Shown here: in pieces, positions 2,534 to 39,173 of the stretch
How positions within the stretch are numbered: position 1 is the stretch's first letter
Layout of the letters: each line of letters opens with the position of its first letter
Source of the DNA: a virus
Lineage: Duplodnaviria > Heunggongvirae > Uroviricota > Caudoviricetes
IMG/VR virus record: IMGVR_UViG_3300045988_024106
Direction: 5' to 3' (one strand)
DNA: 44,656 nucleotides
Position numbers and translations under genes: made by a program
Notes under the pieces: model-generated
The model's input: only the letters and a program-made list of their open reading frames with translations
Database searches by the model: none
Told to the model about the DNA's origin: nothing

Positions 2534-3148
2534 TCAAGCGGCCTCCAGTCTCGAGATAACCAGTAGCGCCGACGGTGCCGTGCCCCATGAGGTTACTGTA
2601 GCCGCTTGTGGGTATACACCGCCGAAGTTGGCCCCGGCGCTATCCCGCATAATCTGAACGGCAAACGTCTGGCCTGCGGTTGGGTTAATAACGACGCGGG
2701 ACTCAATAGGAATTGTTATGTCGGCGCTGACTATTTTTGTGGCAGCGGGAGAGCCGTACTGAGCACCGTTGATGAGGATGCGCGATAACAGGATAGATGT
2801 ACCGCTCGCTCCAGTGCGCCCCGCCTGTAACTTGATGCGGACGGCATAATTACCCGCGGTGTTGAACGTAACCAGCCCCGCAGCATTAAGCATTACCGGG
2901 TCAGATGCGCTACCCTGAGCAGAGCCGAAAGTTAACTGCAATGCTGTATCTACTGCGGCGGGCGCTTGCGCTACTGTTGACGCTGCGCGGAGAACTTCAA
3001 CCTCTTTAACACCGGGAGTGGCGTAAATAGGTGAGTCCGCCATCTGGGTTAATACCCCGCGCAGCTTCGCTGGCGTGATAAGTCCGGTCGTGTTGTCTGG
3101 TAGCTCGGAACCGATTAGCGTGAATATCTCTGTTTTAGTATTCGCCAT
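2534..3148 (-). CDS. Virion structural protein (connector region), function unknown
   Basis: 204-aa ORF in the structural operon; Ala/Gly/Thr-rich; no motif recognised. Confidence 0.45.
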   Translation of the reverse strand: MANTKTEIFTLIGSELPDNTTGLITPAKLRGVLTQMADSPIYATPGVKEVEVLRAASTVAQAPAAVDTALQLTFGSAQGSASDPVMLNAAGLVTFNTAGNYAVRIKLQAGRTGASGTSILLSRILINGAQYGSPAATKIVSADITIPIESRVVINPTAGQTFAVQIMRDSAGANFGGVYPQAATVTSWGTAPSALLVISRLEAA

Positions 3149-3150
3149 TT

Positions 3151-3663
3151 TTAACCCCGGTACACGTTAAACGAGAAGCCATTGTTAAGACCGCCGCACA
3201 GTAACGGGCGTAAGGCGTCGTCCGCAGCCGTAATCGCGGTCGTAGCGCCACTGTTGCCGTTGTTGAAGTAGGTCACTGTCACTGCACCCTCGACACGCTC
3301 AGTCTGCACGGAACGGCCGTCTGAGTTAGCCCGCACTTCGGTGCCTGCGCCATACGTAACTGCGGCGATTACCTGCGCAAGAATTATCTGTTTCGGGATA
3401 ACACTGTTCGCTACAGGGAAGCCATTTAACGTTACGCCGGTGCGGGGATACGCAAGAGACTGTTCTGCCGACACTCGTCTACCGCACATCTGCGGTTCTG
3501 CAAGCCCGACATAAGTAGCGCCGTTGCGCAAGGCCACCTCTGCTGCGGTATCGTCTTCCGGTAGCTCAAGGCCATAATTAGCCGCTAACGCGCGGGCGTC
3601 AGCCAGGCTAATGTAACTGTCAGCGCCAGGTACGATTTCTCCCGTTTCCACGATTAGCGGCAT
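3151..3663 (-). CDS. Virion structural protein (head-tail joining region), function unknown
   Basis: 170-aa ORF, translationally coupled to flanking structural genes. Confidence 0.45.
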   Translation of the reverse strand: MPLIVETGEIVPGADSYISLADARALAANYGLELPEDDTAAEVALRNGATYVGLAEPQMCGRRVSAEQSLAYPRTGVTLNGFPVANSVIPKQIILAQVIAAVTYGAGTEVRANSDGRSVQTERVEGAVTVTYFNNGNSGATTAITAADDALRPLLCGGLNNGFSFNVYRG

Positions 3664-4592: not shown

Positions 4593-5642
4593 TTAAGCCC
4601 CGACACCAGTTACCAGGAAGGCAATCGGTACATGCTTACGGTCAACAACACGGTTCCAGTTGGAGGCGTTCGCCAGGTCCTGCCAGGAAGCAGAGCGAGC
4701 GACAGTCTCAGTGCCGTTGCCGGTGATTACCGCGCTGGTGAAGCTGTAGCCCAGTGGGTGCAACAGCCAGGTCTTACGGGTCCACAGGGTTTCGACGCCA
4801 CCACCGTTACCGCGGGACGCTTCGCGTTCGTATTCCAGCGGGTTAGACGGATTGCCTTCACCGTAACCGATAGCGCCGTTGCCGAAGATGATGGAGATGA
4901 ACTTACGGCTTTGGCCGGTACCAACTACGGTCATGCTGTCGTCAACAATCACGCGGTAACCCTGGTAGGTGGCGAACAAGGTGTCGTTGTCAGCGTCTTT
5001 GATGAAGTCAATAAGCTGCTGCTTACGCGCCTGCGCATAAACGAAGCTGTGCATCGCGATAGCGCCCAGCACTTCGCCACCGTTACCCATCAACGCATCA
5101 CCCATAGTCTGGGTAGCGTCAATGAACGCACCTGCGTCGAAGCCCAGAGAAGCAGACACGTTGATAACCATATCGTTCTGCTTGTGGTAGTCGTCGTCAG
5201 CGGTTACGTTGTCGTTGTACAGACCGAGCGCGGTAGCAATCAGACGGCGTTGTGCCTGACGCTGCCAGAAGTTATCCAGACGAGAAGCCACAGATTGCAG
5301 CGGGTTCTGACTGGTCAGTTCGACCGTCAGGTCTGCCTGACCAAAACCTTCGTTCAGGTACGCAACGCGGGCCATCATCTCGCCAGTCTGCACATTACGC
5401 GGAGTAGCGATGTCCTGATACACATCGTTCGAGTAGTTAGGCTCGATAGAAGTATCAATCGCTTTCCAGAAAGGAATGTTGGCGATGTTGGACGGGCCAC
5501 GAGCGATCTCAGCGGCGTACGGAGTCGGGGTCAGAATACCGGACTGGAAGAACGCGGTTTTTTCTACCGGGTCTTCGGTCATATAAGACGCCAGGACCGG
5601 GATGTTGCCAGTTACGATATCGCCGATAGTGGTAATTGCCAT
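4593..5642 (-). CDS. Major capsid protein
   Basis: 349-aa ORF directly downstream of the scaffold gene, tightly coupled; size and position typical of HK97-fold capsid proteins. Confidence 0.75.
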   Translation of the reverse strand: MAITTIGDIVTGNIPVLASYMTEDPVEKTAFFQSGILTPTPYAAEIARGPSNIANIPFWKAIDTSIEPNYSNDVYQDIATPRNVQTGEMMARVAYLNEGFGQADLTVELTSQNPLQSVASRLDNFWQRQAQRRLIATALGLYNDNVTADDDYHKQNDMVINVSASLGFDAGAFIDATQTMGDALMGNGGEVLGAIAMHSFVYAQARKQQLIDFIKDADNDTLFATYQGYRVIVDDSMTVVGTGQSRKFISIIFGNGAIGYGEGNPSNPLEYEREASRGNGGGVETLWTRKTWLLHPLGYSFTSAVITGNGTETVARSASWQDLANASNWNRVVDRKHVPIAFLVTGVGA

Positions 5643-5644
5643 TA

Positions 5645-6346
5645 TTATTTCCTCAGGGCTTTAAGTTGCCGTTCAAATTCGGCAGGGTTCGATTTATACA
5701 GAGCCAAACGCTCCGCTTCACTCATGTCTTTAAACGCTGGTGCGGCCCCGCCGCCTTTGCCACCGGAAGCCCCGCCGCCGGAAGCTGCATTTGCTTTAAT
5801 CAAATGCGAAAACGCTTTGTGTTCACGCAGGTATTTGCGGAACTGTTCCGGGTCAGTCGTGATTACGTTGCCATCTGCGCCAACAAACTTAGTAACCACA
5901 TCATCGCCTTCGAACTCAGTCTTAACGAACGGCGCAAGAATGTCCACTGCTTCCGGGGTGATAAAGTCACCCGCGAAAGAGCCTAACACTGCTTTACGTT
6001 CGCTGCCGAGGATGCGCTCTGCCATTCTGGAGATGCGACCATCTTTCTCGGCTAACACCGGGTCATACTGGCTACGAATCGTCTTTTCGAACTCGTCCAT
6101 CTTACCAGCGGCTTTTAACGCCTCCTGGTGTGCGCGCTGCCGTTCTTCTTCGGCCTCTTTTGCTTTACGGGCGGCTTCTTTCTTCTCCGCCAGCAACGCT
6201 TCCTGATTGGCCTTAAGACCGGCTACTTCTTTCTCAATCAGCGCCTGAACTTCTTCAGCGGTGAACATTTTCGGCGCGTCACCGCCGCCAGATTTATCTT
6301 CTGCCCCAGCTTCTTCCTGGAACGGATAACGTAAAAAACGATTCAT
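5645..6346 (-). CDS. Head scaffolding protein
   Basis: 233 aa from ATG at 6344-6346 (track start at 6400 is TTG); Ala/Glu/Lys-rich predicted coiled coil; immediately upstream of the capsid gene. Confidence 0.65.
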   Translation of the reverse strand: MNRFLRYPFQEEAGAEDKSGGGDAPKMFTAEEVQALIEKEVAGLKANQEALLAEKKEAARKAKEAEEERQRAHQEALKAAGKMDEFEKTIRSQYDPVLAEKDGRISRMAERILGSERKAVLGSFAGDFITPEAVDILAPFVKTEFEGDDVVTKFVGADGNVITTDPEQFRKYLREHKAFSHLIKANAASGGGASGGKGGGAAPAFKDMSEAERLALYKSNPAEFERQLKALRK

Positions 6347-6428
6347 AGTCAGTATGTCCCCTGGACGTTGGAATCCGGGCCACCCGGATTTACATGTCAA
6401 GAATAAATTATTCCAACATGCAAGGCAA

Positions 6429-6692
6429 CTATTCCAGAATATTCCGCACGTAATCCTGCAACATGAACACTTTCAGTCTCAGTTGCCGTACACATTCGGC
6501 GTTCCGAACGTCAATAGCCAAATCCTCGTCAGCGTCACTACTTGGCGGCGCCAGTTTGCACGGCGGCTGCATCATCGTCGTATCCGGGGATGGAATTGGC
6601 GTTTGCGACGGCGCGGGACTTGAGCAGGACGTGAGCATCATCGAAAGTGCACACGCTGCGGCCAGGCGTTCTAATGTACTTAACGACTTCAC
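6429..6692 (-). CDS. Rz1: o-spanin (Rz1-like outer-membrane lipoprotein)
   Basis: 87 aa; signal peptide ending in lipobox LTSC, Pro-rich mature part; GTG start with RBS GAGGTG; overlaps the 3' end of the Rz-like gene in another frame. Confidence 0.6.
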   Translation of the reverse strand: MKSLSTLERLAAACALSMMLTSCSSPAPSQTPIPSPDTTMMQPPCKLAPPSSDADEDLAIDVRNAECVRQLRLKVFMLQDYVRNILE

Positions 6693-23359: not shown

Positions 23360-23376
23360 AGGGGCGTTAAGCCCCT
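23360..23376. terminator. Hairpin terminator overlapping the XRE gene stop (aggggc-gttaa-gcccct)
   Basis: GC hairpin between convergent primase-helicase (+) and XRE (-) genes; T-rich tail on the minus strand. Confidence 0.5.
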
Positions 23377-23582
23377 TCACCGAACGCCAGCCACTTGGCG
23401 TCTACTTCCAGCACTTCTGCCAGTTTAAACAGCGTCGCCGGGCGGACATCCTGAGTTACACCGAGTGCCAGTTGGTTAATCGCGCCCTGGGAAACCCCAG
23501 CCAGAACAGCCAGACGGCGCTGGGAGATGCCGAGTTCTTTACGGCGTTGTTCTACACGGATGCCTAGTTCAGATGGTTGCAT
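23367..23582 (-). CDS. XRE-family (Cro/CI-type) HTH transcriptional regulator
   Basis: 71 aa; ...RRKELGISQRRLAVLAGVSQGAINQLALG is a canonical HTH_3 motif; sole minus-strand gene in the plus block; RBS AAGGAG. Confidence 0.75.
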   Translation of the reverse strand: MQPSELGIRVEQRRKELGISQRRLAVLAGVSQGAINQLALGVTQDVRPATLFKLAEVLEVDAKWLAFGEGA

Positions 23583-23610: not shown

Positions 23611-23677
23611 TGAATAGTACCATATTAATTATTTTAGGAAAGCCCATTGACATCATGAATAGTTAGCTATTATAGTT
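23611..23677. promoter_or_regulatory. Divergent control region with two operator palindromes and a TTGACA -35
   Basis: tgaatagtaccatatta (23611-23627) and tgaatagttagctattatagtt (23656-23677); TTGACA at 23647-23652; lies between the XRE gene and gene 23709. Confidence 0.55.
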
Positions 23678-23708: not shown

Positions 23709-23885
23709 ATGGCTAAACGTAAAGATTATGATGCTAACTGGAAAGTGTGGTTTCCCAACGTCATCCTAGAAGGACGTGGGGATGTTGAAGGTATGATTAC
23801 TCAGGCATTCCGTTTCTTACCCGAAAACATGCAGAAAGACATTCTTAAAGAACTTAACAATATCGCCGAACAGGAGAACAAATAA
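23709..23885 (+). CDS. Hypothetical protein (58 aa)
   Basis: Manual translation MAKRKDYDANWKVWFPNVILEGRGDV...; RBS GAGAGGAGAG; stop overlaps the next ATG. Confidence 0.4.
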   Translation: MAKRKDYDANWKVWFPNVILEGRGDVEGMITQAFRFLPENMQKDILKELNNIAEQENK

Positions 23886-24412
23886 TGTTAGAGAAATTCT
23901 TAGTATTACTGGAACGTTTCGTAGTTGCGCATGAACTGATTGCTGCGAACAGTGTGAAACAACCGACTAATAAATCTGTAGGTGAATTGACTGTTGACGT
24001 CGCGGTAACGGGGGTAGAGACAGTTAAAAAAGAACTGGCTAAAGCACTTGAAGAAGTCGAGAAGGCGAAAGAAATCCCGGTTGAAGGTGAAGACGTCGTT
24101 GACACTAAACCGGCAGAAGATGAGAAGCCGAAACGCAAGCCTGGCAAATCAAAACCAGCCCCTAAACCTGTAGAGGAACCAACACCGGAGCCGGAAGAAG
24201 AAGTCGATTACCAGTCTCTGCGTGACCAGATTCAGGCTATCGACGATGCGATTAACGAAGGTCCGAGCGATGCCGCGTGCGACGATTCCGATGAACTACT
24301 GGAAGAGTTCACCGGTAAGAAAATGAAGATTGCCGCGATTAAAGACGAAGACCTGGCTGAATATCTGGAACGCCTCACGGCAATCAAGAACAAGTATTTC
24401 GAAGAAGAATAA
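23885..24412 (+). CDS. Acidic early protein (possible DNA mimic), function unknown
   Basis: 175 aa, roughly a quarter Asp+Glu with Pro/Glu/Lys-rich linker (EEPTPEPEEEVDY...); early position. Confidence 0.4.
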   Translation: MLEKFLVLLERFVVAHELIAANSVKQPTNKSVGELTVDVAVTGVETVKKELAKALEEVEKAKEIPVEGEDVVDTKPAEDEKPKRKPGKSKPAPKPVEEPTPEPEEEVDYQSLRDQIQAIDDAINEGPSDAACDDSDELLEEFTGKKMKIAAIKDEDLAEYLERLTAIKNKYFEEE

Positions 24413-24425
24413 CTACTTAACTTAT

Positions 24426-24449
24426 GGTGCCCTCGCTATTGAGGGCACC
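24426..24449. other. Stable hairpin (9-bp stem ggtgccctc / gagggcacc) without a U-tract
   Basis: Perfect inverted repeat 14 nt after the stop of CDS 23885..24412; not a canonical terminator. Confidence 0.4.
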
Positions 24450-24467
24450 AAACTGAGGGTCAGAATT

Positions 24468-24740
24468 ATGATTTACCAACTCTACCGAGCCGTAGACAGG
24501 CGGGATAGCACAGAGGCGTTATGGCTGTTGCGCGCGCCGTCCGGTGCGCACCAGATGGAAGAGATGGCGTACTTAGGCAAAGTACCACGGCCTAAAGATA
24601 TAGGCCGTCACGTGTCGCAGATTAAGCGCACGACTTTCGCCAAGCCTGACTTTTATGTCTTCGAGTCGATGTATGGGTGGGCTATGCACTGCGAACATAA
24701 GACCCGGCATTTAATTGACCAGTGGGAGAACAGGGTATGA
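24468..24740 (+). CDS. Hypothetical protein
   Basis: 90 aa from ATG at 24468 (MIYQLYRAVDRRD...); the track ORF begins upstream at 24330. Confidence 0.4.
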   Translation: MIYQLYRAVDRRDSTEALWLLRAPSGAHQMEEMAYLGKVPRPKDIGRHVSQIKRTTFAKPDFYVFESMYGWAMHCEHKTRHLIDQWENRV

Positions 24741-25234
24741 ATTGGCATGAAGTTTTTGACTACGACCCCGCTACAGGTAAATTATTTTGGAAAATAAGTC
24801 CGTCAAAATCTGTAAAAATAGGGCAAGAAGCTGGCAGTACGAGGGCGGACAACGACGGGAGTGAATTTAAAATACTACGTTTTAACGGGACTACTAAACT
24901 TATCCACCACGTAGTTTGGGAGATGTTTAACGGGCCGATAGCGCCTGGGGAAGTAATTCGTCATAAAAATAAAGATAGAACTGATAACAGAATAGAAAAT
25001 CTTATAAAAATGCGTCGGGGCAGTATCGCACACGGCACCAGCATACGGACGGACAATACTTCAGGGGTTAAAGGTGTTGGGTTTCATAAACGCTATGGTA
25101 AGTGGGTCGCAAGAATTTATGTAGACGGCAGGCCGATTTATTTAGGGGCTTACGATAAGTTAGAGAACGCGGCTAAGGCTCGCAGGCAAGCCGAGATTAA
25201 ATACGGGTTTACAGTTAACGGAGCTGAGAAATGA
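24737..25234 (+). CDS. HNH homing endonuclease with AP2-type DNA-binding domain
   Basis: 165 aa from ATG at 24737 (RBS GGAGA); HNH signature ...IRHKNKDRTDNRIENL... and AP2-like GVKGVGFHKRYGKWVARIYVDGRPIYLGAYDKLENAAKARRQAE. Confidence 0.7.
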   Translation: MNWHEVFDYDPATGKLFWKISPSKSVKIGQEAGSTRADNDGSEFKILRFNGTTKLIHHVVWEMFNGPIAPGEVIRHKNKDRTDNRIENLIKMRRGSIAHGTSIRTDNTSGVKGVGFHKRYGKWVARIYVDGRPIYLGAYDKLENAAKARRQAEIKYGFTVNGAEK

Positions 25235-26481
25235 TTCTAAAAGAACGCGGCGGCAATAATGACGTACACGCCTTACTGTCGCCGTCAGGTGCTAAAAAGT
25301 GGCTAAGCTGCGCCGCGTCACTGGCCTGTGAAAAAGATATTCCTAACACGTCAGGTAAAGCCGCGGTATTAGGCACAGCTATGCATACAATAGCCGAGGT
25401 CCATTTAAATCAGTACATCAAAGGCACTGCGCTGCCGTTAGAACGTGAAGTTGGCGCTTACGTGCTGGATGGGGGTAAAGGTCAGATTAAGGCGCTAATC
25501 AGCCCGATTAAAGGCGCGGTACTGATTACGGCGGATATGATTGAGCAGGTGCGTAAGTACACCGACTACTGCAAACCGATTATCGATGTAGCGACTTACG
25601 CCAAGCTCGAGATGCGCGTCAATCTTACTGAGGTATTGCATCCTGGCTACGAAGGTGTCGAGACGTTCGGAACTGCTGACCTTGTTGCCGTACAGGAACT
25701 GGCAAACACTGACGAGCACATGTTAATTATCGGCGACCTGAAAACTGGGCGGCATCGTATCGAAGCGAAAGAAAACAAGCAGCTTATGCTCTATGCTCTC
25801 GGTGTTTATCGCCGACTCAAGAGACGTTATAACATCGCAGTTGTTCGTCTGGTCATCTTCCAGCCGTACGCTGGCGGGGCGTCGGAGTGGGACATCTCGG
25901 TTGAAGGTCTGGAACTGTTCGCTAAGTTCGCACAGAAACGTGCACTGTTGGCTCTTGATGCCTATTTCCGCGGTAAGAAGAACCTGAAAGCGTCGGACTT
26001 CAAGCCGTCTGTCGATGGTTGTCAGTGGTGCCGGTTCTCTGAACAGTGTGCTGCGCGTACAAAAACCGTTAACGCGGTACTGGTGGAAGAGCTGGAGGAC
26101 GACTTTGCACTGGAACTGACGCCGGAGCAACTCGTAACTGAGTATGAGAAGCTGCCGTTGTTGCGCCAGCACATAGACAAGGTTGAGAAAGCGATGGCCG
26201 CCGCATTGCATTCAGGTAAGAAAGTGCCAGGGTACAAGCTGGTTGAAGGCCGTCCTGGTAATCGTGCGTGGAAAGACTCCGATGCGATTGAAGTGTCACA
26301 CGGCGACATTCTCAAAAAAGAGGTATTGATGTCGCCTACGGAGGCAGCAAAAGTTCTTTCGGCGGACGAGATGGCAGCGCTTGAGCCGTTTATCACGCGT
26401 AAGCCGGGCGCACCATGTGTCGCATCGGCAGACGACAAGCGTCCTGAGTGGAATCAGGTAACAGAGGAGGATTTAGAATGA
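25231..26481 (+). CDS. DUF2800-family PD-(D/E)XK exonuclease (Cas4/RecB-like, Fe-S cluster)
   Basis: 416 aa; N-terminal ALLSPSGAKKWLSCAAS and C-terminal Cys cluster DGCQWCRFSEQCAAR; lies upstream of DUF2815 and PolA. Confidence 0.65.
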   Translation: MILKERGGNNDVHALLSPSGAKKWLSCAASLACEKDIPNTSGKAAVLGTAMHTIAEVHLNQYIKGTALPLEREVGAYVLDGGKGQIKALISPIKGAVLITADMIEQVRKYTDYCKPIIDVATYAKLEMRVNLTEVLHPGYEGVETFGTADLVAVQELANTDEHMLIIGDLKTGRHRIEAKENKQLMLYALGVYRRLKRRYNIAVVRLVIFQPYAGGASEWDISVEGLELFAKFAQKRALLALDAYFRGKKNLKASDFKPSVDGCQWCRFSEQCAARTKTVNAVLVEELEDDFALELTPEQLVTEYEKLPLLRQHIDKVEKAMAAALHSGKKVPGYKLVEGRPGNRAWKDSDAIEVSHGDILKKEVLMSPTEAAKVLSADEMAALEPFITRKPGAPCVASADDKRPEWNQVTEEDLE

Positions 26482-26714
26482 TTCGTAAAATGTTCAGAGT
26501 AATTGGCGGTTTTGTGGCGTTTTTAAGCTATCACTTTATGATGTTGCCGGTTTATTCTTTGCTTTTTCCATTAATGGCTTATATTGCGGTTAAGTATAAA
26601 ACTGTAGACCTGGAAGACTTAATGGAAGTTAATGAGATAAAGTTTGTTCAGAATTTGGAGTGGCCTTTCGAATACGTACTGATAGTTGAGAAAATAACTG
26701 GCTGGAAGGGTTGA
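26478..26714 (+). CDS. Small membrane protein
   Basis: 78 aa from ATG at 26478 (RBS AGGAGG); hydrophobic segments FVAFLSYHFMMLPVYSLLFPLMAYIAV. Confidence 0.4.
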   Translation: MIRKMFRVIGGFVAFLSYHFMMLPVYSLLFPLMAYIAVKYKTVDLEDLMEVNEIKFVQNLEWPFEYVLIVEKITGWKG

Positions 26715-26739
26715 CACCTGAATAGTTAGCTATTATAGT
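26710..26739 (+). promoter_or_regulatory. Promoter with operator palindrome (TTGACA + tgaatagttagctattatagtt)
   Basis: TTGACA at 26710-26715; the 22-nt block 26718-26739 is identical to 23656-23677; followed by a short hairpin (26751-26766) and the DUF2815 gene. Confidence 0.55.
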
Positions 26740-26793
26740 TCTAATCACTGGCCGGGCAGCTTCCCGGAGTAAACTTAAAAGCGAGAAATCACG

Positions 26794-27420
26794 ATGGGAC
26801 TGAAATTAAATCTGCGTAAAGTAAACACTGCATGGGTTAACGTATTCGAACGCGAAAAAGACCGTGAAAACGATGATGGCTCAATCACTAAAGGCCAGTA
26901 CAGCGCGACTATCATCCTGCCGTCCGACCATGCTCAAATCGACGCGCTATACGACACTGTTTACGCTGTAGTTGAAGAAGCGTTAGGTGCAGCCGCCGCT
27001 GAGAAATGGATGAAGTCCAACTACGGCGAAGGCAAGCACATGGATAAATGCGCGATTAAAGACATTGCCGAGCGCGACAATCCGTTTGAAGACTTCCCAG
27101 AAGGCTTCTACTTCAAAGCGAAGGCACAGAAACAGCCGCTGATTGTAACCTCTAAAAAAGGTGAGACTCAGGTAGAGCAGGACTTCAACGTAGACGGCGA
27201 ACAGATTGAAGGCGAACAGGTTTACAGCGGCTGCGTCGCTAACGTAAGCGTTGAAATCTGGTTCAGCCAGAAATATAAAGTCCTCGGCGTTAACCTGCTG
27301 GCGATTAAATACGTTGGTGAAGGTAAAGCGTTCGGTGGTTCTAAAGTAGTCGCAAGCGTCAATGACCTGGAAGACGACGAAGAAGATGGAGCACCACGCC
27401 GTGAACGCCGCCGTCGCTAA
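26794..27420 (+). CDS. DUF2815-family protein (putative ssDNA-binding replication factor)
   Basis: 208 aa; conserved position between the DUF2800 exonuclease and PolA; basic C-terminus APRRERRRR. Confidence 0.55.
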   Translation: MGLKLNLRKVNTAWVNVFEREKDRENDDGSITKGQYSATIILPSDHAQIDALYDTVYAVVEEALGAAAAEKWMKSNYGEGKHMDKCAIKDIAERDNPFEDFPEGFYFKAKAQKQPLIVTSKKGETQVEQDFNVDGEQIEGEQVYSGCVANVSVEIWFSQKYKVLGVNLLAIKYVGEGKAFGGSKVVASVNDLEDDEEDGAPRRERRRR

Positions 27421-27439
27421 TATCTGAATCAATTTAACT

Positions 27440-27462
27440 AAGGCCCTTCATTGGGCCTTTTT
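27440..27462 (+). terminator. Rho-independent terminator/attenuator before the DNA polymerase gene
   Basis: aaggccc-ttcatt-gggcctt hairpin followed by TTTTT. Confidence 0.6.
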
Positions 27463-27479
27463 ACTAAGGGTCGAAAATA

Positions 27480-38290: not shown

Positions 38291-38646
38291 AATTCAATCT
38301 CCGTGTACAAGTCTCTCAGGTCAACAAGCCTGTCAAGCCGTACCTGACGGGAGGCCATTTCGCAATGACTCACCATTCCGTCAAAGTAGACCCCGGCGTG
38401 CCACACGATTCTGCCGCCGCGGCGCCTACCCATAAGAACCGCGCACAAGTTTTCAGGCTTATCAATTTTCGTAAGCCCCTTCGTGTCACGATGACCTTCA
38501 TCAAACGCTTCGTTAATTGCCGTTGGGCTTGTAGCGTCGAACGCCGGGGTTGCTAACCCGGCATCCGCACGGACAATACGCACATGATGCCAGCAATTGC
38601 GTTTGCGAAAGTCGTAAGGTATTCCCGTGTAGTCGTTAATGTTCAT
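38281..38646 (-). CDS. Tail-associated NlpC/P60-family peptidase (lambda gpK-like)
   Basis: 121 aa; Cys/His arrangement (NCWHHV...H.GVYFDGMVSHCE) typical of NlpC/P60 papain-like hydrolases; position between L-like and tip genes. Confidence 0.55.
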   Translation of the reverse strand: MNINDYTGIPYDFRKRNCWHHVRIVRADAGLATPAFDATSPTAINEAFDEGHRDTKGLTKIDKPENLCAVLMGRRRGGRIVWHAGVYFDGMVSHCEMASRQVRLDRLVDLRDLYTEIEFWR

Positions 38647-39173
38647 GTGATTAACAGACCGCGTAATAACGGTATCTCTTTAGGTGTCATAAGTATACCA
38701 GTGCTTCGTTGGTTCAGCATAGGCGTCCCTAAATTAGCAGAGAACCGCCCCTTGTCCTGAGCTATGGTCTGCGCCTCATATACCACGGGGCCATCTGCCG
38801 GGTATGACAGGTCGGTGCTGACATAACGGCGAAATATGAACTTCGGCAACTCAGTGCTATCCATCGGAATATTATCCAGCTCATCGTCCAGTAAATTTCC
38901 GACGTCAGGAAGGGTAAACGTCGTCGTCTGGTCCATGTCGTTATTGTTAGCAGCCCCCGACGCCTCCATCGGGGTTGGTTCGAACGTGATTGTTTCGCCT
39001 GTCTCCAGCGTTGCCGTAAGTTCCTGCAGTCCGCGTACAAGATAGTACGTCTTTGACAGCAACGGGTGGCTGACTTGCAACGTGATGTAGTCCATCTCGC
39101 CGTCGGGATTTGAGGCCAGCTTACGGCGATAGGCGGCTTCTACTGATTCCTGGCTCATTGCATCGGGTCCCAA
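38643..39173 (-). CDS. Minor tail protein (gpL-like), putative
   Basis: 176-aa ORF; assigned by position. Confidence 0.45.
   Translation of the reverse strand: MGPDAMSQESVEAAYRRKLASNPDGEMDYITLQVSHPLLSKTYYLVRGLQELTATLETGETITFEPTPMEASGAANNNDMDQTTTFTLPDVGNLLDDELDNIPMDSTELPKFIFRRYVSTDLSYPADGPVVYEAQTIAQDKGRFSANLGTPMLNQRSTGILMTPKEIPLLRGLLIT

Follow-up and report, generated by a model that had tools for sequence, protein, structure and literature searches.

Is the 165-codon gene that separates the early genes from the DUF2800 exonuclease of a K1G-like coliphage an active homing endonuclease? The initial annotation of this locus described a free-standing HNH-AP2 homing endonuclease, a selfish mobile gene that may be missing from close relatives. 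We analyzed a DNA stretch of 44,656 nucleotides (IMG/VR record IMGVR_UViG_3300045988_024106; hereafter the window), which belongs to Kagunavirus (Guernseyvirinae, K1G-like coliphages). The first 25 kb of the window are ~90% identical to known Kagunaviruses over 65–75% of the length, and the best GenBank relative at the locus is Escherichia phage EcoPhCCP1 (94.9% nucleotide identity). The protein encoded by the gene (allele denoted HNH-A) is 100% identical to XHQ01495.1 of EcoPhCCP1, which is labelled 'HNH endonuclease'. According to the accounts of Magnani et al. 2004 given in PMC5714182 and PMC10448857, the HNH-AP2 homing endonuclease family occurs in phages, cyanobacteria and protists; genome papers on the subfamily mention HNH or homing endonucleases as accessory genes (PMC9825357, PMC5582158, PMC8425127). 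Family, domain architecture and the exact protein, deposited as an HNH endonuclease, are already known.

The HNH-A gene and its operon

The features of the locus are listed in Table 1. The gene order is helicase-primase, a divergent HTH repressor-like gene, three small genes, HNH-A and the DUF2800/PD-(D/E)XK exonuclease; 3' of the exonuclease follow a small ORF, a Gp2.5/Enc34-type SSB and DNA polymerase A. In a consensus scan, strong sigma-70-like sites at 23647–23676 and 26711–26739 bracket the HNH-A operon, and no terminator-like site was found on the + strand between them. The upstream site probably drives the HNH-A-containing operon 23709..26714.

The open reading frame of HNH-A can be extended to an upstream GTG at 24722, which would give a protein of 170 aa. 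We assign ATG 24737 as the true start on sequence grounds, because all homologues begin with MNWHE and a GGGAG motif is placed 8 nt 5' of this codon. The GC content of HNH-A is 43%, compared with 52–53% in the neighbouring genes (GC3 40% versus 56–65%), a composition that would suit an active homing endonuclease.

Table 1. Positions of the features of the HNH-A locus in the window.
Feature	Position	Strand	Details and basis
Sigma-70-like promoter TTGACA-18-TATAGT (11/12)	23647..23676	+	consensus scan only
Upstream 90-aa gene (K1G gp41 homologue, phrog_4965)	24468..24740	+	stop TGA 24738–24740
Shine-Dalgarno GGGAG	24724..24728	+	8 nt 5' of HNH-A ATG
HNH-AP2 gene (HNH-A allele)	24737..25234	+	165 aa + stop; ORF, Pfam, PHROG
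494-bp unit missing from K1G	24741..25234	+	window, EcoPhCCP1 and ZCEC5 aligned with the empty K1G junction
Beta-beta-alpha-Me (His-Me finger) core, aa 72–100	24950..25036	+	AlphaFold2: strands 72–76 and 89–93, helix 94–100
AP2-fold DNA-binding domain, aa 105–156	25049..25204	+	profiles, AlphaFold2, Foldseek
GGAG, replacement Shine-Dalgarno within HNH-A 3' end	25220..25223	+	7 nt 5' of exonuclease ATG
DUF2800 / PD-(D/E)XK exonuclease, 416 aa	25231..26481	+	Pfam 1.4e-66; PHROG 69 exonuclease

HNH-A has the HNH_3-AP2 architecture

Both strings on which the initial annotation had based its domain assignment are present in HNH-A, the HNH string IRHKNKDRTDNRIENL at residues 74–89 and the AP2 string GVKGVGFHKRYGKW...RRQAE at residues 110–153. 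The protein matches the Pfam profile HNH_3 (PF13392) with 54.2 bits (gathering cut-off 24.8; E = 1.1e-14), the match ending at profile position 37 of 46, short of the helix Asn, and PHROG 99 'HNH endonuclease' with E = 2.4e-51. Pfam AP2 (PF00847) scored 27.2 bits (E = 4.7e-6), under its gathering cut-off of 33.3, and is designated 'weak' in the precomputed hits. Because of this sub-threshold score, the AP2 domain was checked independently by PDB searches and a structural model. With HNH-A as phmmer query, the AP2 domain of WRI1 was the sole match in the PDB; a profile of 26 homologues retrieved WRI1 (3.6e-8), I-HmuI (4.1e-7) and the AP2 domain of TEM1 (1.4e-5).

The AlphaFold2 model of HNH-A (pLDDT 87.7) contains a beta-beta-alpha unit at residues 72–100 and a sheet plus helix at residues 114–155. 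The latter comprises the elements of an AP2 fold (strands 114–117, 122–129 and 132–139, helix 142–155) and is preceded by a conserved DNTSG linker. A Foldseek search with the model returned I-HmuI at the top, followed by the AP2 domains of TEM1 (7et4), WRI1 (7wq5) and AtERF1 (1gcc; TMt 0.64, rmsd 2.2 Å). I-HmuI, the HNH nicking endonuclease of SPO1 (PDB 1U3E), is the best structural match and the sole PDB nuclease matched by sequence; it differs from HNH-A in being intron-encoded, in its non-AP2 C-terminal DNA-binding modules and in the presence of Asp and Asn metal ligands. The plant AP2/ERF proteins (AtERF1 1GCC, WRI1 7WQ5, TEM1 7ET4) share the three-stranded sheet and helix as well as detectable sequence similarity, but are eukaryotic transcription factors devoid of a nuclease domain.

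The annotated combination of an HNH motif with an AP2-type domain in the 165-aa ORF is borne out by the agreement of HNH_3, PHROG 99, PDB profiles, AlphaFold2 and Foldseek. Among the Pfam profiles, HNH_3 scored above its gathering cut-off and AP2 below, the AP2 fold being backed by the PDB profiles, the model and Foldseek. The search against NCBIfam gave zero matches, and that against PADLOC yielded weak generic 'homing endonuclease' models only. A second AP2-like segment at 38563–38661 (tblastn E = 0.001) was dismissed as a chance match, as it lies inside minus-strand tail genes without a supporting ORF.

The HNH-AP2 family is very large, with tblastn matches in 2,747 GenBank phage records; because 63,457 representatives of 50%-identity clusters match HNH-A at E<=1e-3, the family match is far above chance. 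A large group of homing endonucleases typically has this HNH_3 plus AP2 architecture (PMC5714182, PMC10448857). Like other members of the family (PHROG 99; the 'IPA-HNH' HEGs of ICP1), HNH-A is a small, optional, free-standing gene with an N-terminal HNH_3 domain, a DNTSG linker and a C-terminal AP2 domain. Judged by profiles and model, HNH-A is a genuine member of the HNH_3-AP2 homing-endonuclease family of free-standing phage genes, and this membership in itself favours an active enzyme.

A clean insertion into the gp41/exonuclease junction

In K1G, the 90-aa gene (gp41) and the exonuclease gene overlap directly through ATGA. Compared with this empty junction, HNH-A represents a clean insertion of 494 bp flanked by a direct repeat of ATGA, which confirms that a compact insertion separates the exonuclease from the early genes, as the initial annotation had deduced from 4-nt overlaps with both neighbours. 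The left overlap (24737–24740) joins the HNH-A start codon to the TGA of gp41; the right overlap (25231–25234) contains the exonuclease ATG at 25231 and the HNH-A TGA at 25232–25234. A comparison of the flanks of 48 loci revealed that the GGGAG used by HNH-A serves the exonuclease in genomes with an empty junction, and the GGAG at the 3' end of HNH-A is conserved among HNH-A carriers. This takeover of the exonuclease Shine-Dalgarno and start, together with the supply of a new GGAG and ATGA, indicates that HNH-A is co-transcribed and translationally coupled within an early replication/recombination operon that it leaves undisturbed. Throughout the subfamily, the nucleotide sequence of the last ~30 nt of gp41 is conserved.

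An active homing endonuclease would, upon co-infection, cleave relatives without the HNH gene at or near the gp41/exo junction, and repair would copy the cassette and a variable length of flank. The precision of the insertion, which would split a target spanning the junction, fits such a scheme. Two candidates for sequence signatures of a target did not hold. A GCC-box-like GCGGCGGC at 25247, 13 nt into exo, was rejected as an AP2 target, GCCGCC occurring 53 times in the window; GGC/GGT variants are found in all cassette classes. Just after the junction, ATT-TTA-AAG was seen in the initial census in empty sites only (15/23) and ATT-CTA-AAA in all occupied sites. A rule of synonymous 'immunity' polymorphism fails, since one contig (L077) carries a non-nuclease cassette, c6, followed by ATGATTTTAAAGG; eight empty sites of the 'occupied' type also speak against it. 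Empty K1G junctions come in ATGATTTTAAAGG and ATGATTCTAAAAG types.

The junction is shared with other cassettes

For a census of the junction, 50 IMG/VR loci fetched with the exonuclease as query were combined with GenBank loci, gp41, exo and the HNH gene were located in each, and the 47 relatives with both flanking genes served as denominator. The junction is empty in 24 of the 47 and holds HNH-A in four, HNH-B (56–58% identical to HNH-A) in two and remnants of HNH-C (~48% identical) in two; the gene is missing from close relatives, as had been anticipated. The remaining 15 carry non-nuclease cassettes, denoted c6 (phrog_20588), c7 (similar to phrog_924), c8 (phrog_31152) and c9, each of which starts and stops in the same ATGA overlaps. 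In other genomes, the slot of HNH-A is thus taken by no fewer than four unrelated small genes as well as by two further HNH-AP2 alleles. Among 22 GenBank records with both flanks, taken as a spread sample, nine junctions were empty, eight held c6-like cassettes, one held HNH-A and four had other insert sizes. At >=90% identity, HNH-A is present in only four GenBank records (three phages), and overall in about 1–2% of GenBank relatives.

HNH-B occurs in Jerseyvirus phages, many of which carry it in addition to those of the census, and in Kagunavirus SXAU_B4; in SE-W109 it is deposited as 'homing endonuclease' (AOT28026.1). It occupies the same slot directly 5' of the exonuclease, begins at the gp41 ATGA overlap and is near-identical to HNH-A over the N-terminal 33 aa. 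In contrast to HNH-A, it retains the canonical D-H...N...N motif, and it extends over the first ~12 codons of the exonuclease gene, which are recoded. The HNH-C remnants are a frameshifted gene in fBC-Eco01 and a 67-aa product with an internal deletion in contig L039. Recoded exo 5' ends were observed in carriers of HNH-B and HNH-C alike; they would be expected if this endonuclease lineage targets that region. From these comparisons, HNH-A is related to canonical HNH-AP2 genes occupying the same slot in sister phages.

HNH-A is optional, precisely placed between intact conserved genes and sporadic among close relatives, and so are the non-nuclease cassettes. The presence/absence comparison thus upholds the optional nature of the gene but not its specificity for a selfish nuclease, since four non-nuclease cassettes are equally patchy. 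Because these cassettes show the same patchiness and divergence, presence and absence do not constitute evidence of active homing. As judged from the cassettes that it holds, the HNH-A junction is a general hotspot of cassette exchange.

HNH-A lacks the canonical metal ligands

The active-site segment of HNH-A is EVIRHKNKDRTDNRIENLIKMRRGSIAHGT. It retains H76, N84 and N88, and carries Arg at position 75 and Ile at position 97. The profile-to-I-HmuI alignment pairs D75 with D74, H76 with H75, N88 with N87 and N97 with N96 of I-HmuI, the exact numbers D74 and N96 being taken in part from this alignment. R75, I97 and H99 are common to all eight HNH-A sequences. Among 187 aligned homologous domains, drawn from the closest ~175 cluster representatives, Asp75 is found in 174, His76 in 184, Asn88 in 186 and Asn97 in 167. 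Arg75 is limited to the HNH-A allele in this set, and both metal ligands are otherwise missing only from one half of tandem two-domain proteins. HNH-A accordingly departs from its family by having Arg and Ile where ~90% of homologues keep the Asp and Asn metal ligands.

In His-Me finger nucleases, the His acts as general base and an Asn or His of the helix binds the metal, with an acidic or His residue preceding the catalytic His often binding it too (PMC5714182, PMC2816704, PMC5304195); Asn87 of I-HmuI positions the catalytic His (PMC2816704). By alignment, HNH-A is without both canonical metal ligands of an I-HmuI-type site. The 'HNH nuclease motif' quoted in the initial annotation is incomplete, with R75 in place of Asp and I97 in place of Asn in every HNH-A member. 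The active site of HNH-A is atypical and possibly inactive, which casts doubt on endonuclease activity and on the homing that depends on it. The loss of both ligands, one of them to a positively charged Arg, weighs against a fully active enzyme. On the other side, the catalytic His is kept, and one metal ligand suffices in some His-Me nucleases: I-PpoI and Serratia nuclease use a single Asn (PMC2816704), so that a missing Asp would not by itself settle the matter for HNH-A. His99 stands two residues past position 97 and could conceivably act as a metal ligand. The confidence of the AlphaFold2 model is lowest in exactly the helix that holds these positions (pLDDT 68 for residues 91–100).

HNH-A and HNH-B (EEIDHINHIRTDNRIENLRKVYRSDNVKNR) align without gaps through the motif, and the helices of their His-Me fingers are identical at just 3 of 16 positions. 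A compensated double frameshift was rejected as the origin of the divergent HNH-A helix, as neither alternative frame of HNH-A or HNH-B yields the peptide of the other.

The ligand-less allele is under purifying selection

Nei-Gojobori dN/dS values among six HNH-A alleles are 0.04–0.13 in both halves of the gene, at dS values of up to 0.46; within the motif segment, position 77 alone varies among these alleles. No frameshifts or stops were found in the six diverged alleles or in at least 23 metagenomic contigs with the identical protein. These substitution patterns indicate that the ligand-less state is kept under strong purifying selection and that the allele is not decaying. Constraint is equally strong in the HNH and AP2 halves, and an active enzyme would give the same pattern; strong purifying selection on the nuclease half counts among the arguments for activity.

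A functionless, decaying homing-endonuclease relic awaiting deletion is very unlikely. The loss of two catalytic residues and the decay of the sister HNH-C in fBC-Eco01 and L039 would agree with it; the low dN/dS over such divergence nearly refutes it, and the reading frame is intact throughout the diverged alleles and the identical-protein contigs.

HNH-A and the non-nuclease cassettes are similar in distribution and divergence

In a neighbour-joining tree of the exonuclease, HNH-A carriers are placed at at least four separate positions, which could be taken to support homing, and carriers of c6, c7 and c9 are equally scattered. The dS among HNH-A alleles is 0.11–0.46, compared with 0.18–0.38 for gp41 and at least 0.46 for exo; HNH-A alleles thus appear about as diverged as the backbone, with no sign of recent invasion. 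The median pairwise identities of HNH-A carriers are 91.8% for the cassette, 91.3% for the gp41 flank and 84.0% for the exo flank. The corresponding values are 92.4, 79.3 and 90.0% for c6, and 93.4, 92.6 and 88.0% for c7, and the relation of cassette to flank identity is alike for the three. A recent spread of HNH-A relative to its flanks was not supported, given the matching c6 and c7 controls and the similarity of HNH and flank dS. The reading of HNH-A as a selfish mobile homing gene loses ground: the allele is old (dS up to 0.46), and its pattern matches that of the c6 and c7 controls.

The exact HNH-A protein is encoded by at least 23 metagenomic contigs, always in the same slot. On these contigs, which were picked by HNH identity, the HNH DNA is 99.6–100% identical and the flanks drop to 73–97% at variable distances. 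Such variable shared tracts resemble co-conversion and would be expected of an active homing endonuclease, but the pattern is biased by the choice of contigs on HNH identity. Contigs encoding an identical exonuclease or an identical gp41 were used as unbiased controls. The HNH gene is present on all contigs with identical exonuclease; an identical gp41 is accompanied by HNH-A in nine of ten places and by c6 in one (L077). Compared with the window, L077 has 0/273 mismatches in gp41, 51 in exo nt 1–461 and 2 in nt 462–1251, and is ~100% identical beyond. From this pattern, the cassette and the first ~460 nt of exo were exchanged between near-isogenic genomes of the window type and of L077. Parsimony suggests that HNH-A was replaced by c6 in L077, which would fit ordinary recombination; this sole recent event, simplest as a loss of HNH-A, speaks against an active homing endonuclease. 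Taken together, the distribution and divergence data neither require nor establish homing driven by the nuclease.

Discussion

The explanation that we favour, with modest confidence, is that HNH-A binds DNA specifically, that its metal-dependent cleavage has been lost or strongly altered, and that it spreads by ordinary recombination in its flanks. We infer this also because the metal ligands are replaced while the AP2 domain, H76, N84 and N88 are kept. The optional cassette of 494 bp sits in the ATGA stop/start overlap of gp41 and the exonuclease gene, adopts the Shine-Dalgarno and start context of the exonuclease, and supplies the latter with a new GGAG and ATGA. In the mechanism that we propose, the AP2 domain and the His-Me finger would still direct the protein to a specific DNA site, its metal-dependent cleavage would be abolished or strongly altered, and the gene would persist and move among phages mainly through ordinary homologous recombination in its conserved flanks, in the manner of the non-nuclease cassettes. 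Several observations run against this explanation, among them the retained general-base His and structural Asn residues, the equal constraint on both halves of the gene and, among contigs selected on HNH, the occurrence of an identical HNH nucleotide sequence on backbones that differ on either side.

That HNH-A is a fully active free-standing homing endonuclease, either a nickase or a double-strand cutter, with a rewired metal site, is a serious possibility that we nevertheless doubt. Family and architecture, base composition, the precise insertion, the constraint on the nuclease half, the scattered carriers and the recoded exonuclease ends of the sister alleles can all be read in its favour. 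Set against them are the missing ligands, the non-nuclease cassettes with their equal patchiness and the same cassette and flank identities, and the rarity of an allele that is nonetheless old. A terminase-linked packaging HNH protein like HK97 gp74, for which the generic HNH label is the only argument and which recalls the packaging role suggested for the HNH genes of fBC-Eco01 in the paper on that phage (PMC9825357), is exceedingly improbable and effectively refuted by the optional presence of HNH-A: most close relatives package normally without it, it lies in a replication/recombination operon (helicase-primase to exonuclease, SSB and DNA polymerase) and not beside the terminase, and HNH_3 plus AP2 is typical of homing endonucleases (PMC5714182, PMC10448857).

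The specific DNA binding by an altered nuclease that we favour can be extended to a bolder proposal, in which a homing endonuclease became catalytically dead and was domesticated, HNH-A being kept by selection as a sequence-specific DNA-binding protein for a phage function. We put this forward tentatively and consider it rather unlikely as it stands. The Smad MH1 domain offers a likeness, its active site having deteriorated with DNA binding kept (PMC5714182); the catalytic His is absent there and kept in HNH-A, and the homology is at the superfamily level only.

As a homing endonuclease, HNH-A adds little, HNH-AP2 genes being present in thousands of phage genomes. An earlier description of the conserved ligand-less allele or of the cassette hotspot was not found in the literature, and these two points are modest refinements. 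For annotation, the lesson is that 'HNH + optional' is insufficient to establish homing at the gp41/exo junction, because the junction is a cassette hotspot and HNH-A is without metal ligands.

The slot also provides a natural series in which a single endonuclease lineage is represented by the canonical HNH-B, the decaying HNH-C and the strongly conserved, ligand-less HNH-A; this series could serve to study the fate of homing endonucleases after invasion. If HNH-A were indeed domesticated, it might tune the coupled exonuclease/SSB recombination module, or block cutting by HNH-B or HNH-C of co-infecting phages through occupancy of the target site; it would then represent a phage-internal parallel to the route from endonuclease to transcription factor that has been proposed for plant AP2 proteins.

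Cassette exchange at the gp41/exonuclease junction

The ATGA overlap between gp41, the 90-aa gene upstream of the optional HNH-AP2 gene (HNH-A), and the downstream exonuclease gene is a hotspot of cassette exchange (window 24737-24740 and 25231-25234; loci L012-L043 and L077 of relatives). At least four unrelated small genes, alone or combined, share the start and end overlaps at this junction; the non-nuclease cassettes c6-c9 are listed in the table. On the gp41 side, nucleotide-level conservation of the final ~30 nt of the gene (CATTTAATTGACCAGTGGGAGAACAGGGTATGA) extends even to Jerseyvirus.

The near-isogenic contig L077 (Logan ERR9710712_248), which was compared with window 24468-27300, carries c6 in place of the HNH gene. 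Its gp41 is identical to that of the window, nucleotides 1-461 of its exonuclease gene diverge by 11%, and all downstream sequence is ~100% identical. The difference is a recombination tract with sharp bounds, the left edge of which falls exactly at the ATGA.

Coordinates and properties of cassettes, HNH-AP2 genes, recoded exonuclease starts and promoters
Feature	Locus	Position	Details
c6	gp41/exonuclease junction		phrog_20588, 115 aa
c7	gp41/exonuclease junction		~phrog_924, 85 aa
c8	gp41/exonuclease junction		phrog_31152, 45 aa
c9	gp41/exonuclease junction		~51 aa
Other HNH-AP2 genes, further slots	L005	4647-5120	
	L025	~2132-2539	
	L056	~1219-1626	
	L062	4233-4679	
Recoded exonuclease starts	L004	~3005-3050	
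	L006	~3505-3550	
	L051	~2390-2435	
	L005, L039	exonuclease start	
Sigma-70-like promoter, near-consensus	window	23647-23676	TTGACA-18-TATAGT, 11/12; 5' of early small-gene/exonuclease operon
Sigma-70-like promoter, near-consensus	window	26711-26739	TTGACA-17-TATAGT, 11/12; 5' of SSB gene

Other variable slots and neighboring genes

Two further slots, the SSB/DNA polymerase and exonuclease/SSB gaps, hold other HNH-AP2 genes in relatives; their counterparts in the window contain nothing (27421-27479) or a small ORF. This ORF (26448-26714), 3' of the exonuclease gene, marks a second variable slot. It comprises 88 aa counted from GTG (78 aa as annotated in relatives) and gave no match in PHROG and Pfam; in contigs that are nearly the same as the window elsewhere, this position holds an ORF of 56, 51 or 57 aa, or none. 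A divergent HTH (Cro/CI-like) gene of 71 aa lies on the minus strand at 23367-23582. DNA polymerase I of Salmonella phage SE-W109 (L006) is annotated as two adjoining CDSs (5552-5923 and 5938-6504), which could reflect a frameshifted or interrupted gene, or else a sequencing error.

HNH-C decay and recoding of the exonuclease 5' end

HNH-C, the third HNH-AP2 allele, has a canonical active site and is a decaying allele in fBC-Eco01 and L039. The fBC-Eco01 copy (gp49c, L005 1918-2413) contains a frameshift within the AP2 domain and appears in the annotation as an HNH endonuclease of 140 aa; the L039 copy (2801-3001) has shrunk to a 67-aa fusion of N- and C-terminus.

Thirteen nucleotides into the exonuclease gene, beside the junction, the window contains GCGGCGGC (25247-25254), whose reverse complement, GCCGCCGC, is GCC-box-like. 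The exonuclease variants linked to HNH-B, another allele of the slot, and to HNH-C have this site destroyed; with 53 copies of GCCGCC across the window, the presence of the site near the junction is not statistically meaningful. The exonuclease N-termini are recoded in HNH-B and HNH-C carriers (MTLKAKDRSGSNDVH and MKIKGRSGSNDEH versus MILKERGGNNDVH), and HNH-B overlaps the exonuclease start by ~17 nt. Recoding and overlap together would fit a target of the canonical alleles within the first ~40 nt of the exonuclease gene.
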